From the NCBI GenBank assembly GCA_964394925.1, contig CAYMZG010000005.1:26873-90872 (forward strand): 64,000 bases of DNA. The letters are read 5' to 3'. The notes below the pieces were generated by a model. That model saw nothing but the letters and a program-made list of their open reading frames with translations. It did not search any database and was not told the origin of the DNA. This stretch comes from an uncultured Candidatus Saccharibacteria bacterium (lineage in GTDB: Bacteria; Patescibacteriota; Saccharimonadia; Saccharimonadales; CAYLGV01). This document shows positions 4,074 to 42,396 of the stretch, one piece after another (within the stretch, counting starts at the first letter, position 1; each line of letters begins with the position of its first letter). The position numbers were made by a program, and so were the translations under genes.

Positions 4074-4188
4074 TAGGGGAATGTCAAAAAAACATATATA
4101 AACTAACAGAATAGGGGAAAGTCAAATAAATTGGCCAGGATCCATGAAAAAGTAAATGTTTTCACGACATTGCTGTGGAAAAGTCAAA
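4074..4188. repeat. three direct copies of a 15-nt motif T[A/G][G/T]GGAA[T/A]GTCAAA in an AT-rich spacer
   Basis: Copies at 4074-4088, 4112-4126 and 4174-4188. They lie inside a 560-bp ORF-free AT-rich gap between convergent genes. Confidence 0.35.
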
Positions 4189-4576
4189 CTTTGACAATTA
4201 TCACAACAAGCACTTCCGTGGTTGGCGAAAGTAACCGCGAATAAAATAACACGGTGCGTATATAACAGGTGTTAGTCGTGCTTAAACTTACGTAATGATG
4301 CCGCCAAGCCAAAATAGTCCCCTGTAGGGCCATATAGACATTCAACCTATAATACTAATTACCGCGTCGCAAAATATACATTGTGCGACATCTTTGTGTG
4401 TTCGCAATGTGGTCTCCTGCTGCGTTATCATAATTGGCTTTTTGATCTGGTTTTCTTGTATTTATGTACATGTACATTATCTTTACCTACTCTGCTTGCA
4501 TCGGTTGATTTTTCTTCCTCAGGATGATTGTTATTTCCAACATTCTTGATGATTAAAATGTTCGCAAAATGTACGT

Positions 4577-20412: not shown

Positions 20413-20489
20413 GGCCCCGTCGTCTAGCGGTTTAGGATATCTGGTTCTCATCCAGAAGATCGCGGGTTCGAATCCCGCCGGGGTCACCA
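20413..20489 (+). tRNA. tRNA-Glu (anticodon CUC), CCA encoded
   Basis: Hand-folded cloverleaf: acceptor GGCCCCG/CGGGGTC, anticodon arm TCTGG-TTCTCAT-CCAGA, T arm GCGGG-TTCGAAT-CCCGC. Confidence 0.9.
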
Positions 20490-20528
20490 AAGTAAAAGGC
20501 TCATCGAAAGATGGGCCTTTTACTTTGG
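20487..20528 (+). terminator. 19-bp hairpin (GAAA loop) that begins inside the tRNA CCA
   Basis: CCAAAGTAAAAGGCTCATC-GAAA-GATGGGCCTTTTACTTTGG. Confidence 0.5.
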
Positions 20529-20636
20529 TTAGGTCTCGCCAGAGACTCCGAAGCCGCAGCGTTCGATCTTCAGGCCCGCTCGCAAGTGCTTGCACTGAGA
20601 ACGGGCGCGGAAGTAAACATCCCGCCGGGGTAACGA
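20529..20636 (+). repeat. tRNA-linked GC-rich structured module, member A, ending in a copy of the tRNA-Glu 3' end
   Basis: Core GCAAGTGCTTGCACTGAG at 20582-20599. ATCCCGCCGGGGT at 20619-20631 matches tRNA positions 20472-20484. Confidence 0.6.
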
Positions 20637-34703: not shown

Positions 34704-35915
34704 TTAGCTAGATAGCCGGCTGGTGAGGCGATGCCAAAGTGTTTCGCTGTTACTCGGCAGTGTTTTGGGGCTGCCCTCATTGGCCTTGGCTGAACTAGCC
34801 GTGTTGCCTGCTGGATCGGGCGTTATCTGCTCACCAGTAACAACCAGGCGGTTTAAGCTGGTCCCCGGTGGGTCACACGTTATGAGGCTGAACGTGGCCG
34901 GCTTGCCGTAATTGTAGTTAAGTACTGACACGTCCTGCGGTTTAACAATCTTCTTATCGAATACTTTGTAGACGTAGCGTTTGCCGTCTTTTTGCAGTAT
35001 GAAAGTATCACCGTTCTCCAGTCGTTTTAAGAGTACGAAGGCGAACTTATACTTTCCCTTGTTAAAGATATTATTTGCGGAGTGACCGAAAATGGCACCG
35101 TTGCCTAATTCACCCGGATTTGGAGTTGTTGCGTAATGCACCACTCCCCTGTCGAGTGCGTTATGAATAGCATTCTCATCAATCGACGGCTCGTCGTACA
35201 CAACGGGTATCTCAACGTTAATTTTAGGAATAATTATGAGCGGTTCGCTACCAGCGGTAGTTGCGCTGCCATCAATGATTATGGAATTGTTACTGACGGT
35301 TTTACTTGGGGATATAAAAGGAGCCAAGAAGCGTTCATTGAAAAAACTAAACAGTAGGATCACGACAACGATTAGGCCCGAGGCCAGCCCGAACGCCAGT
35401 GATTTGAGGTGGCCTCCGCGTTTGCCATGCCCTGAACGAGCTGCACCACGAGCAATTTGTTTCTTCACCGCACTCACCGTGCGTGTGCCGTGCGGGTGGT
35501 GTTTCCGTCGGGCAGCAGTATTATGCGAGACATGATCAACTGGTGTTGGTGTGGTGAGTTGGGCGGTTTTATCGGTCGCGGTAGTAGCGTGGTGTGGTCG
35601 GCCGTCACCGAGGCGTACACCACGTTTGTTGTATTCATCATAAAATTCTTGCCAGACCTGATGCTTCTCGTGGTCTGGCAGGGCGAGATAGTAGTTGTGC
35701 CAAGCGGTCTGGATTTCCGCTAACGAGCGGCCAGATTGGCTCAACTCAAGCATGTAGCGTTGATGCTTCGAACGGTGCGGTTCATGCTTGGCCTCAATGA
35801 TCTCCTCTTTGGCGTTCGGCTCCTCTGCATAGAGGTCATTTAGTTTGGCACGAATCAAATCCGCCGCCGGATTGGCGGCGTTCTCGGGCGCGTTGTCGTG
35901 ATTCGTATTGCTCAT
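34704..35915 (-). CDS. sortase-family transpeptidase with long N-terminal extension
   Basis: GHSANN and the TLxTC-type motif FSLITCDPPG. One TM segment. Confidence 0.75.
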   Translation of the reverse strand: MSNTNHDNAPENAANPAADLIRAKLNDLYAEEPNAKEEIIEAKHEPHRSKHQRYMLELSQSGRSLAEIQTAWHNYYLALPDHEKHQVWQEFYDEYNKRGVRLGDGRPHHATTATDKTAQLTTPTPVDHVSHNTAARRKHHPHGTRTVSAVKKQIARGAARSGHGKRGGHLKSLAFGLASGLIVVVILLFSFFNERFLAPFISPSKTVSNNSIIIDGSATTAGSEPLIIIPKINVEIPVVYDEPSIDENAIHNALDRGVVHYATTPNPGELGNGAIFGHSANNIFNKGKYKFAFVLLKRLENGDTFILQKDGKRYVYKVFDKKIVKPQDVSVLNYNYGKPATFSLITCDPPGTSLNRLVVTGEQITPDPAGNTASSAKANEGSPKTLPSNSETLWHRLTSRLSS

Positions 35916-35979
35916 ATGTGCTTATGCTGGATTAACAGATACCAGTATAGTATAATTTGGCGGTCATTCATACCGAGCC

Positions 35980-36064
35980 GGGCGAGTGGCGGAACTGGTA
36001 TACGCGCACGACTCAAAATCGTGTTCCTAACGGAGTGAGGGTTCGATTCCCTCCTCGCCCACCA
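35980..36064 (+). tRNA. tRNA-Leu (anticodon CAA), long variable arm, CCA encoded
   Basis: Acceptor GGGCGAG/CTCGCCC, anticodon arm CACGA-CTCAAAA-TCGTG, T arm GAGGG-TTCGATT-CCCTC. Confidence 0.9.
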
Positions 36065-36100
36065 AACAAACAGTCCAGCAACGCTGGGCTTTTTGTTTGG
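36062..36100 (+). terminator. long hairpin beginning inside the tRNA CCA
   Basis: CCAAACAAACAGTCCAGC-AAC-GCTGGGCTTTTTGTTTGG, with two small bulges. Confidence 0.5.
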
Positions 36101-36218
36101 TTGATGTGATGAGAACCCGATCGGCGAAGCCGGGGTTCGTTCATGACGAACACGCGCAGGTGCTCGCACCGAGCATGTGAGGAAATGCGAGCGAAGCGAG
36201 TTCCCTCCTCGCCATGCC
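36101..36218 (+). repeat. tRNA-linked GC-rich structured module, member B, ending in a copy of the tRNA-Leu 3' end
   Basis: Core GCAGGTGCTCGCACCGAG at 36156-36173. TTCCCTCCTCGCC at 36201-36213 matches 36047-36059. Confidence 0.6.
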
Positions 36219-36354
36219 CCTTTTGCTATATTCTTGTAAATCTCATACCTTGCATTAATACAAGACCCAGCCGCTTGAGCTGGGCTTGTATAGCGATACC
36301 TCCGTACCCCCACAACAGAGATAATAACAACTGAAACTGAGAACTGGCTGGTTA

Positions 36355-37149
36355 TTACGTAAGTTCTGTAATGGCAGTTGTCAGCGCCTCAAATGGTTTG
36401 CTGGGATTTTGCAGCCACCAGGTAGCGGCGTATGTTGCTGATCGAACGCGCCACTTCTTGGTGTCCTGTGTGTTTTTTGTGGAGCTTACTTGACCATTTA
36501 TGGCTACCACATATTGATCAAGGTGTTTGACGATGACCGCTAGATTGTGCGCTCCGGTCATTTCATGCAAGCTATCGATGAGCTGAAGCAGGCCCATGTC
36601 GAATGTAATAGGCTGTGTTACGCGAAGTCGCGTGGCTAGTTTTTGCAGCTGAGCCATGGTCAAAACATGCAGACGATTACCTTGCAGCAATGCCATGTCA
36701 CTGTTGGTCAGGCTGTCACACGCATCTTTGGTAAGCGTTATCTGGCCAGTGTGTTTATGTAGTAACTTCTCGAGTAAGATGGTTGCTTCACTATTATGGC
36801 CAAAATTTCCAGCCAATAAGATGCCGTCGGCCCACGCTGCTTCGTGAAGAACCTCCGCCAGGGCTTGCTGGCCGAAACTCCCACTCGGTGTGCTTGGCGC
36901 GAATTCAACTTGCGGCAGAACGGCCCCAGCGATTTTATGTACCGCATCGGGCAGAAGTACCCGCACGCTGCCGGCACCGGCCTTTACAGCATGGCTATAG
37001 GCTTCAGCTGGGTCAATAAAACCATGTGTATTGCCGCCGACAATCAGTAGCTTCCCGGCTTGCGCTTTATGCTCGGGCCGACTCCACAGCAGATCAGGAA
37101 AGAGTGGACTCTCGGGCTGCTGTTTCTGCCAATAGTTGCGCTGATCCAT
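36355..37149 (-). CDS. YjeF C-terminal / carbohydrate-kinase-like protein (putative NAD(P)HX dehydratase)
   Basis: KLLIVGGNTHGF...AGAGSVRVLLPD pattern. Weak family resemblance only. Confidence 0.45.
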   Translation of the reverse strand: MDQRNYWQKQQPESPLFPDLLWSRPEHKAQAGKLLIVGGNTHGFIDPAEAYSHAVKAGAGSVRVLLPDAVHKIAGAVLPQVEFAPSTPSGSFGQQALAEVLHEAAWADGILLAGNFGHNSEATILLEKLLHKHTGQITLTKDACDSLTNSDMALLQGNRLHVLTMAQLQKLATRLRVTQPITFDMGLLQLIDSLHEMTGAHNLAVIVKHLDQYVVAINGQVSSTKNTQDTKKWRVRSATYAATWWLQNPSKPFEALTTAITELT

Positions 37150-42132: not shown

Positions 42133-42267
42133 AATTGTGGCGGAGGGAGAGGGATAGCGGCCTTCGGCCTTCTCCGCTGCGGCGTACTCGGTGCAAGCAC
42201 CTGCGTGCGTCCTCGCTACGCCGAACCCTGCCACTTCGTGCCATGGGTTCTTCACCCCCCCATACAG
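42133..42267 (-). repeat. tRNA-linked GC-rich structured module, member C, ending in a copy of the tRNA-Ser 3' end
   Basis: The core at 42187-42204, read on the minus strand, is GCAGGTGCTTGCACCGAG. The 18 nt at 42138-42155 are identical to 42307-42324. Confidence 0.6.
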
Positions 42268-42308
42268 CAATGTTTATATCCCAGCCTTCGGCTGAGCTAC
42301 AAACATTG
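42268..42308 (-). terminator. hairpin beginning inside the tRNA CCA
   Basis: Minus strand: CAATGTTT...CAGCC-GAA-GGCTG...AAACATTG. Confidence 0.45.
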
Positions 42309-42396
42309 GCGGAGGGAGAGGGATTCGAACCCTCGATACCCTTTCGAGTAAACCCGCGTTCCAGGCGAGCGCCATAAACCACTAGGCGACCCCTCC
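42307..42396 (-). tRNA. tRNA-Ser (anticodon GGA), long variable arm, CCA encoded
   Basis: Acceptor GGAGGGG/TCCCTCC, anticodon arm CTCGC-CTGGAAC-GCGGG, T arm GAGGG-TTCGAAT-CCCTC. Confidence 0.9.

Follow-up and report, generated by a model that had tools for sequence, protein, structure and literature searches.

The locus described here lies in a 64-kb stretch of the genome of an uncultured Candidatus Saccharibacteria bacterium (the window) and begins with an intact tRNA-Leu(CAA) gene that encodes its own CCA end (locus B; Table 1). The gene is followed, on the same strand, by a series of short segments: a long palindromic hairpin (H1), a decayed inverted copy of the tRNA 3' region, a second hairpin (H2), a joining segment (J), a helix (P3) that encloses an invariant core, a third hairpin (H3), and a tail that exactly repeats 13 nt of the tRNA. 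H1 starts with CCA, ends with TGG and scores as terminator-like on both strands in a terminator scan; hairpins of this style occur 3' of nearly all tRNAs in related loci, empty sites included. The only clear remnant of the inverted copy is GAACCC, complementary to GGGTTC, while the 3' arm of H2, GGGGTTCG, is a copy of the tRNA T-stem 5' strand plus TTCG. The J subtype (GTTCATGA...GAAATG) is also present in other genomes, behind tRNA-Glu (L105) and tRNA-Arg (L078). P3 contains a conserved C.A mismatch and a GCA/GA internal loop, and matches the covariance model described below with 51 bits (E = 3.8e-10). H3, with a GC-GAA-GC core and flanking tandem G.A, abuts the start of the tail, in which the discriminator base and CCA have decayed (it reads ATGCC). 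The palindromic hairpin 3' of the tail is probably a displaced or second terminator (H1'), common to the convergent gene at 36355-37149; homologous H1/H1' pairs with compensatory stem changes are found in L064, and partial ones at the tRNA-Ser locus of the window (locus C).

Table 1. Features of locus B and of the two other module copies in the window.
Feature	Position	Strand	Basis
tRNA-Leu(CAA), intact, encoded CCA	35980-36064	+	ARAGORN; Rfam RF00005, 60.3 bits
T loop TTCGATT of tRNA-Leu(CAA)	36042-36048	+	sequence
Left repeat copy, tRNA-Leu positions 59-71	36047-36059	+	sequence
H1, long palindromic hairpin: A-rich arm, stem, T-rich arm	36062-36100	+	sequence, terminator scan
Decayed inverted copy of tRNA 3' region, TGGTTGATGTGATGAGAACCC	36098-36118	+	comparison with better-kept relatives
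H2, GAACCC / GGGTTC(G) stem around CGGC-GAA-GCCG	36113-36139	+	sequence
H2 arms, GAACCC paired with GGGTTC	36113-36118 / 36133-36138
H2 mini-hairpin	36122-36132
Joining segment J, TTCATGACGA	36140-36149	+	stacked modules, alignment
P3, helix ACACG/CATGT enclosing the core	36150-36178	+	RNAalifold, pair counts, covariance model
P3 conserved C.A mismatch	36153 / 36175
P3 apical hairpin, GGTG-CTCG-CACC	36159-36170
Invariant core, CGCAGGTGCTCGCACCGAG	36155-36173	+	recurrence across copies
H3, small hairpin GCGAGC-GAA-GCGAG	36187-36200	+	sequence
Tail TTCCCTCCTCGCC, exact 13-nt repeat of tRNA positions 59-71	36201-36213	+	identical to 36047-36059
Palindromic hairpin ACAAGACCCAGC-CGCTTGA-GCTGGGCTTGT, 3' of tail	36260-36289	.	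terminator scan, minus-strand score
Locus A module behind tRNA-Glu(CTC) (20413-20489)	20490-20631	+	covariance model, 43.9 bits, E = 2.7e-08
Locus A core	20581-20599
Locus A tail, ATCCCGCCGGGGT	20619-20631
Locus C module behind tRNA-Ser(GGA) (42307-42396)	42138-42306	-	covariance model, 58.5 bits, E = 4.2e-12
Locus C core	42187-42205
Locus C tail, perfect 18 nt with CCA	42138-42155

A sequence-only reading had proposed a tRNA-linked module at 35980-36225, and every coordinate that it gave matches the sequence: the first hairpin indeed begins at the CCA, the GAACCC/GGGTTC hairpin with its inner CGGC-GAA-GCCG lies where it was placed, and the segment assigned to the tRNA 3' strand is identical to its counterpart in the tRNA. 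The core, put at 36156-36173, is present, but the conserved block begins one base earlier. Likewise, the CATG tetranucleotides noted on both of its sides exist, but their symmetry is not itself the feature: the second (36174-36177) is part of the helix between ACACG (36150-36154) and CATGT (36174-36178), and the first (36142-36145) lies upstream, in the joining segment. That the copy lacks its own terminator holds only in part, given the A-rich/T-rich palindromic hairpin 3' of the tail. That reading offered no mechanism and overlooked the inverted tRNA 3' copy that separates the first hairpin from the module.

An architecture common to several loci had also been claimed, and is present at all three tRNA genes of the window, with the parts in a common order, as well as in dozens of other genomes. 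The module behind tRNA-Glu is a shorter version. A 24-nt core region of locus B recurs at the tRNA-Ser locus with three mismatches, where 100 shuffles predict 0 matches, indicating that the recurrence is not due to chance. The three copies represent three different subtypes, so nothing suggests that the element has recently amplified in this genome. Flanking genes have orthologs beside the corresponding tRNAs in other Saccharibacteria loci (at tRNA-Leu a sortase and a 264-aa protein on its two sides, at tRNA-Glu a histidine kinase and at tRNA-Ser an ABC ATPase), so that the window is ordinary chromosome of this lineage. Among 30 window proteins, Pfam recognised FtsW, MurG, TopA, DprA, Der, GltX, DinB and others of this kind, and none that belongs to a mobile element. 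Scanning the three loci for promoters gave no informative result.

Distribution of the family and its tRNA-derived parts

We scanned 185,579 genomes, one per species, with an exact pattern for the 19-nt core, CGCARGTGCTYGCACYGAG, and obtained at least 118 matching loci. About 80 of the matches listed are on Candidatus Saccharibacteria/Saccharimonadales MAG contigs; the remaining listed ones are mostly single matches in unrelated taxa, and their number is close to the roughly 35 matches that we estimate to occur by chance in a collection of this size. The core was also seen in Spirochaete loci. Viral contigs gave three matches, none with a tRNA context, against an estimated 3-4 expected by chance. 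A covariance model of the 37-nt P3 (R1) recovered at least 102 copies in 82 Saccharibacteria loci. Among the matches listed, a same-strand tRNA ends 85-130 nt upstream in 63 of 122 external matches, and these tRNAs cover 18 amino acids; the element is always on the strand of its tRNA, which itself is intact. Judged by its sequence distribution, the family is real and specific to Saccharibacteria.

The 56 copies that we could parse and stack follow one plan: the tRNA, H1, a ..TCGAACnn segment, an inner hairpin of a few recurrent types, nnGGTTCG, the joining segment, P3, H3 and the tail. The nnGGTTCG of each module corresponds to the T-stem 5' strand of its cognate tRNA, and 20-45 nt after the core the last bases of the same tRNA are repeated. 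In the external tRNA-linked copies, this exact repeat has a median of 15 nt and a maximum of 20; it extends to the final A of CCA in 36 copies, 25 of which have a repeat of 17-20 nt, placing the boundary at T-loop position 58|59 (start 59 +/- 1). The segment that follows H1 is the reverse complement of tRNA nucleotides ~44-76, near-perfect in L084, L099, L069 and L081 and decayed outside these four loci, the window included. The direct copies comprise positions 44-57 and 59-76, and the inverted copy spans the variable-loop/T-arm region and sometimes the whole 3' 33 nt.

These parts have been retained to different degrees. Mean identity of the tail (59-76) is 0.88 to the cognate tRNA versus 0.52 to non-cognate tRNAs, and that of the direct copy of 47-57 is 0.76 versus 0.66. 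For the inverted copy, the corresponding values are 0.71 versus 0.59 over 47-57 and 0.49 versus 0.45 over 58-76, its outer part being, on average, at background. The H2 arms agree with the cognate tRNA in 181 of 213 scored positions and the departures are mostly uncompensated; compensatory evolution within H2 was not found, and the arms track the tRNA. The earlier proposal of a T-arm-like sequence split by the core is borne out by the 56 parsed copies, in which the bases before TTCG agree with the adjacent tRNA's T-stem 5' strand and the tail with its positions 59-76, both varying with tRNA identity. In the loci examined, we never found a downstream partial tRNA copy with an uninterrupted T loop, indicating that this picture is correct and general. 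Pairing of the inverted copy with the tail would form a closing 'acceptor' stem, for which cognate tails gave only slightly better values than non-cognate ones (-11.7 versus -9.8 kcal/mol); a conserved tRNA-like cloverleaf is not claimed.

Structure and coding capacity of the P3/H3 cassette

RNAalifold recovers a helix around the core. In an alignment of 54 sequences, 99.3% of the P3 cells are paired and 52 are double-change cells, values that none of 500 shuffles reached, while slid controls on the same alignment gave 16-58% pairing. In a covariance-model alignment of 102 copies, pairing amounts to 98.9% and six of the eight pairs show compensatory changes (0/500 shuffles). Some variant copies that the exact pattern misses carry GAAG/CTTC, GGAG/CTCC or GGAAT/ATTCC in place of GGTG/CACC, showing that the apical stem co-varies too. 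Fixed elements of P3 are the internal loop C-R-C-A-G ... C-G-A-G and the C.A mismatch (50/54 copies). Hairpin loops are mostly GAA, GCA or GTA, closed by C-G, and H3 has equivalents in the same place elsewhere (GGCC-GAA-GGCC, GGAC-GAAG-TCC or GCGC-GAAG-GCGC).

Since the H2 arms are uncompensated and the three window copies do not exceed shuffled sequence in folding stability (z -0.5 to -2.0), the case for a selected structure rests on P3 and H3, where the aligned copies indicate that the structure of the cassette is under selection. Well-kept copies adopt a predicted closed multi-branch fold, the closing stem of which consists of acceptor/T-stem sequence (z about -3). By folding energy, the whole body prefers neither strand, and the minus strand is slightly favoured for P3+H3 and the closing stem: the C.A mismatch corresponds to G.U on the opposite strand, on which P3+H3 folds slightly better (38/56, p = 0.008). 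Evidence for the tRNA strand comes from the CUUG/CUCG loops and from several G.U pairs.

Coding potential of the element is rejected, as a test on the copies yielded no consistent open reading frame. This result and the compensatory flanks dispose of the idea, raised in the sequence-only reading, that the core is a remnant of a protein-coding gene; for the other objection raised there, an already described repeat, no repeat or RNA family described in Rfam or in the searchable literature matches. Rfam 15 gave no relevant match at the gathering threshold or at E <= 10, likewise for the Spirochaete loci with the core, and in 36101-36225 neither cmscan with tRNA models (gathering threshold and E <= 10) nor ARAGORN detected anything, the upstream tRNA being the only one. 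Clustering of open reading frames over 83 loci linked only housekeeping genes to the element. No transposase, integrase or reverse transcriptase gene was found adjoining any copy, and no tnpA, tnpB or IntI was seen in the available sequence of the loci. As we found no published description in the searchable literature, the family has apparently been undescribed so far. A K-turn, the SRP domain IV loop, mimicry of 16S helix 6, casposon-type duplication and hairpin-end (P-nucleotide) models all fit too poorly to be claimed.

Occupancy, mobility and possible function

Among the pattern-selected loci, the core lies behind 69 of the 117 tRNAs with enough downstream sequence, and the same anticodon can be occupied in some genomes and free in others. 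For an unbiased sample, we used the sortase gene beside tRNA-Leu(CAA), which yielded 80 metagenome loci. At most of these, tRNA-Leu(CAA) is followed directly by a convergent gene or a plain terminator; a tail repeat of at least 11 nt is present in 4 of 54 loci versus 0 of 54 in the upstream control. The main family is represented in this sample by L198 and L196 only, the latter with a divergent core missed by model R1. The orthologous tRNA-Leu locus of L110 carries a different subtype from locus B. Tandem arrays occur in L112 (117-nt units), L024 (three copies, 157 nt spacing), L025 and L078, and L152 contains a perfect 63-nt repeat of tail and H1; together with the H1/H1' pairs of L064, this indicates that the duplicated unit often includes the terminator. 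L037 holds a rearranged copy. J/H3 subtypes are common to different tRNAs and genomes, as in locus B, L105 and L078, and cassette families B, C and D have the antisense T-loop piece first and the tRNA tail last, as in the main family.

Patchy occupancy, arrays, the rearranged copy and shared subtypes make the element behave like an insertion, and it is from this distribution that we infer mobility. Our leading explanation, to which we give about an even chance, is a Saccharibacteria-specific family of small (~110-200 nt), non-coding, structured and non-autonomous insertion elements in the 3' flank of tRNA genes, with locus B, at the same even chance, as an old and partly decayed copy. Its entry point would be the 58/59 junction in the T loop or, what amounts to the same, the site directly after the terminator, and entry would duplicate the tRNA 3' end, probably together with the terminator, so that the tRNA is kept intact. 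It would have reached tRNA genes for 18 or more amino acids, with its tRNA-specific parts re-templated from each new target. Being non-autonomous, it would rely on a factor encoded elsewhere, which may recognise the conserved P3/H3 cassette in a folded single strand, either RNA or single-stranded DNA. We know of no transposition mechanism that yields inverted and direct target copies inside an element, nor of a model that accounts for their renewal at each new tRNA.

That the 19-nt core is invariant in very divergent genomes, and that the tail is kept far better than the inverted copy, points to lasting purifying selection for a cellular role more than to a purely selfish repeat. The element could accordingly be read as a host-beneficial non-coding RNA gene, the main rival explanation, possible if somewhat doubtful, and one that does not exclude the insertion element. 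Its putative transcript would arise by read-through of H1 or from a start of its own and end at the second terminator, and its P3/H3 scaffold would present an 18-nt 3' tail identical to the tRNA 3' end. The tail could mimic the acceptor/T-arm half for a tRNA-handling enzyme, or serve as a guide that pairs with the 5' half of the tRNA or with the template strand of its gene; the order of scaffold and then 3' guide, adjacent to a conserved TTCGA, is by analogy reminiscent of guide-RNA layouts in general. The compensatory flanks of the core across the whole order fit an RNA gene, as do the tail identity of 88% beside a decayed inverted copy and the closed multi-branch fold of well-kept copies. 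In L064, both H1 and H1' have been kept as hairpins via compensatory changes, and at locus C H1 has no T tract, making read-through into the module likely. However, most orthologous tRNA-Leu loci have no module, which is thus dispensable, and tandem, truncated and rearranged copies are typical of repeats rather than of RNA genes. The window copies, which fold no better than shuffled sequence, and the mixed strand signals, with a C.A mismatch that would be G.U and a slightly better fold of P3+H3 on the strand opposite the tRNA, also argue against this reading.

The direct repeat from T loop to CCA brings to mind the integrases of the P4 type, for which such a repeat marks the islands that integrate into tRNA genes; Williams, in 2002, is said to have distinguished sublocation classes of integration in tRNA genes. 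The module might accordingly be a fused attL/attR remnant, a cis-mobilisable mini-element, of T-loop islands that brought a replacement tRNA 3' end. Cargo does separate the tRNA from a 'fragment-H1-module' at several loci: L029, where it measures 4.5 kb and includes the remnant of a serine recombinase, L062/L004, where it includes Fic genes, L052 and L097. These islands hold Fic, radical-SAM and similar genes. The displaced 3' piece is of a different tRNA-Leu allele in L144, L145/L148, L136 and L179, so that incoming DNA supplied the present 3' end. Nevertheless, we consider this origin improbable: tRNAs of at least 18 identities share one cassette, while any given integrase/att pair is confined to a single tRNA; no integrase turned up in ~200 loci, with the L029 remnant as the only recombinase trace; the compensatory changes point to a folded single strand and not to double-stranded arm sites; and the repeat often runs past CCA into the terminator. 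Very improbable is a miniature element of the IS200/IS605 type (PATE) that would have entered a partial, dispensable tRNA copy on the 3' side of TTCG(A) and whose right-end transcript would be a TnpB/TldR-type guide RNA with the flanking positions 59-76 as the guide. Points in its favour are the fixed orientation, an insertion point immediately 3' of a conserved pentanucleotide, a pair of imperfect subterminal hairpins and a guide-sized 18-nt tail, and loops of the GNA type closed by C-G, as in GCGAAGC-like sequences, form very stable DNA mini-hairpins. But no tnpA or tnpB was seen in the available sequence of the loci, the right end shows no sequence conservation, only partial tRNA copies are interrupted, never whole ones, and the palindromic context of inverted copy and inner hairpin is unaccounted for. 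The cassette does always follow ..GGTTCG(A), yet a direct repeat exists, and the IS200/IS605 family makes none.

More speculatively, the element could be aimed at tRNA genes in a categorically new way, target-templated or RNA-guided, as a programmable tRNA-gene-seeking unit, a suggestion we regard as rather unlikely. Such a unit would consist of an RNA or folded ssDNA scaffold with target-specific ends rewritten from the adjoining tRNA. Rewriting could proceed by reverse transcription or template switching on the mature tRNA, a stop at position 58 leaving the 18-nt tail, or through an RNA-guided protein that reads TTCGA plus positions 59-76. Reverse transcriptases copy 18 nt of a tRNA up to m1A58, and the same stretch is the usual T-loop att block; we treat this match as a lead, not as a result.

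Relation to known systems

Saccharibacteria genomes are tiny and leave little room for junk, yet many of their tRNA genes are followed by the element. Should it be mobile, it would have a previously unseen way of choosing its target and of rewriting its own ends from it; should it be a host RNA, it would add a new, tRNA-paired class to the non-coding RNAs of a major uncultivated lineage. Either way, it matters for how tRNA genes are annotated, terminators predicted and integration sites detected in these genomes, and it offers a compact natural scaffold matched to tRNA genes. Should the target-templated or RNA-guided reading hold true, it would also provide a new way to aim and re-aim a mobile or regulatory element at any tRNA gene.

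Several known systems share part of this design. A scaffold followed by ~18 nt matching a tRNA 3' end next to TTCGA may be compared to the omega-RNA of TnpB and to the homing crRNA of type V-K CAST, which is aimed at tRNA genes, and also to the 18-nt retroviral primer-binding site, in that the length of 59-76 equals a reverse-transcriptase copy before m1A58. Unlike in these systems, no effector or reverse-transcriptase gene was found, and the 'target' lies only ~150 nt upstream on the same strand. With integron attC sites and the attP hairpin of CTX phage, the element has in common a stem structure conserved over sequence, an inverted GAAC...GTTC pair, a hairpin that copies the double-stranded form of the target, and array-like 'ORF plus module' arrangements (L097, L052). 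In the element, however, the GAAC...GTTC pair is derived from the palindromic TTCGAA of the T loop, an invariant 19-nt core and a duplicated tRNA tail are present, and most copies have no cassette gene.

Islands and prophages that integrate into tRNA genes by T-loop crossover, and their deletion derivatives, resemble the element in the tRNA 3'-end site, the intact tRNA, the displaced T loop-to-CCA copy at the far end (13 nt at locus B), serial or tandem occupancy, and occasional cargo. They differ in that the element measures only 110-200 nt, has no integrase, uses one cassette at tRNAs of at least 18 identities where such a family has one target tRNA, contains internal inverted as well as direct target copies, and conserves a structure instead of double-stranded binding sites. 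MITEs and REP/REPIN sequences are likewise small, non-coding, multi-copy, hairpin-forming, intergenic, polymorphic between genomes and devoid of a gene of their own, and with at least 102 copies in 82 loci the element matches this description; GTAG, a REP/REPIN feature, appears in some J segments (GCGTAGCGAGG), not in all. Unlike MITEs and REP/REPIN sequences, however, the element occurs strictly at tRNA 3' ends, in the orientation of the tRNA; its ends are copies of the target instead of fixed terminal inverted repeats, its direct repeat is not a constant short duplication but measures 18 nt, or up to ~60 nt with the terminator, and its core is identical across the entire order.

Hairpins and related cassettes behind Saccharibacterial tRNA genes

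A long palindromic hairpin is common on the 3' side of tRNA genes in Saccharibacteria, with one A-tract arm, one T-tract arm and a stem that reaches as far as the encoded (A)CCA, which is paired with TGG(T). Both hairpin and CCA pairing are also kept at tRNA sites free of the module, the structured element that ends in a copy of the tRNA 3' end. Moreover, Saccharibacterial tRNAs precede at least three other cassette families, which we named B, C and D. Their cores are unrelated, but their plan is identical to that of the main family: a terminator hairpin leads to an antisense piece of the T loop, and tRNA positions 58/59-76 come last. The 133-aa open frame that spans the tRNA-Leu gene and its module in the window is not a gene, but an artefact of a G+C-rich, stop-poor sequence.

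Coordinates of the features discussed; L-numbers denote compared loci from other genomes or contigs
Feature	Locus	Coordinates
Families B, C and D (locus groups)	L024 (tRNA-Gly), L014, L018, L039, L132, L141, L152; L156, L175; L147, L179	
Palindromic hairpin	window	36062-36100, 20487-20531
Palindromic hairpin, empty site (examples)	L054, L037, L126, L140	
Open frame	window	35912-36313 (minus strand)
Tandem array	L024	6567-6917
Tandem array	L112	7054-7207
Rearranged copy	L037	~4150-4230 (minus strand)
Protein-coding cargo	L062	1700-4540
Protein-coding cargo	L004	
Protein-coding cargo	L029	670-5100
Protein-coding cargo	L052	270-1400
Protein-coding cargo	L097	2400-5200
Core in Spirochaete repeat	L042	5780-5960
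Core in Spirochaete repeat	L019, L041, L065, L070, L087, L113	
Core on viral or plasmid-like contig	L119	300-560

Arrays, cargo and probable allele replacement

Modules also occur in tandem, as three variant-core copies at 157-nt spacing behind tRNA-Ala(GGC) in L024, and as two 117-nt units of 97% identity, both without the palindromic hairpin, behind tRNA-Arg(CCG) in L112. In the rearranged copy, the first 24 nt of tRNA-Ser(GGA) run straight into the core, behind which come a decayed tail and then an intact tRNA-Ser without a module of its own. At five loci, protein-coding cargo separates the tRNA from a unit of tRNA 3' fragment, hairpin and module; this cargo comprises a pair of genes with Fic domains, a radical-SAM/kinase/phosphatase set that includes the remnant of a serine recombinase, and lone unknown ORFs. 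L097 looks like an array of repeated ORF-plus-module units, each closed by a tRNA-Asp tail.

In L144, L145/L148, L136 and L179, another tRNA-Leu allele is represented, 5-70 nt behind the present tRNA-Leu-CAA, by its 3' half or just its 3' end, which indicates that the resident gene was swapped out by incoming DNA. The displaced piece is unbroken from the anticodon loop onwards in L144, and carries a 20-nt palindrome within its T loop in L145.

The core away from tRNA genes

The 19-nt core is also found within a CAAGGGG/CCCCTTG helix on an IMG/VR contig, with a GGAC-GAAG-TCC hairpin behind it, in a structured, non-coding stretch with no tRNA nearby. As the number of core matches among viral contigs equals our own chance estimate, this occurrence may be coincidental.

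An identical core is present at seven loci in Spirochaete MAGs, where its host is a different, intergenic multi-hairpin repeat, often located directly upstream of secreted-protein genes. None of the seven is linked to a tRNA, and the repeat has no match in Rfam. Its core is flanked by GAGTCGTAC and GAACGATCTC, and adjacent units read GCTGGTCG-hairpin-CTGCTCGCC. The core hairpin may be a module that some widespread factor recognises.
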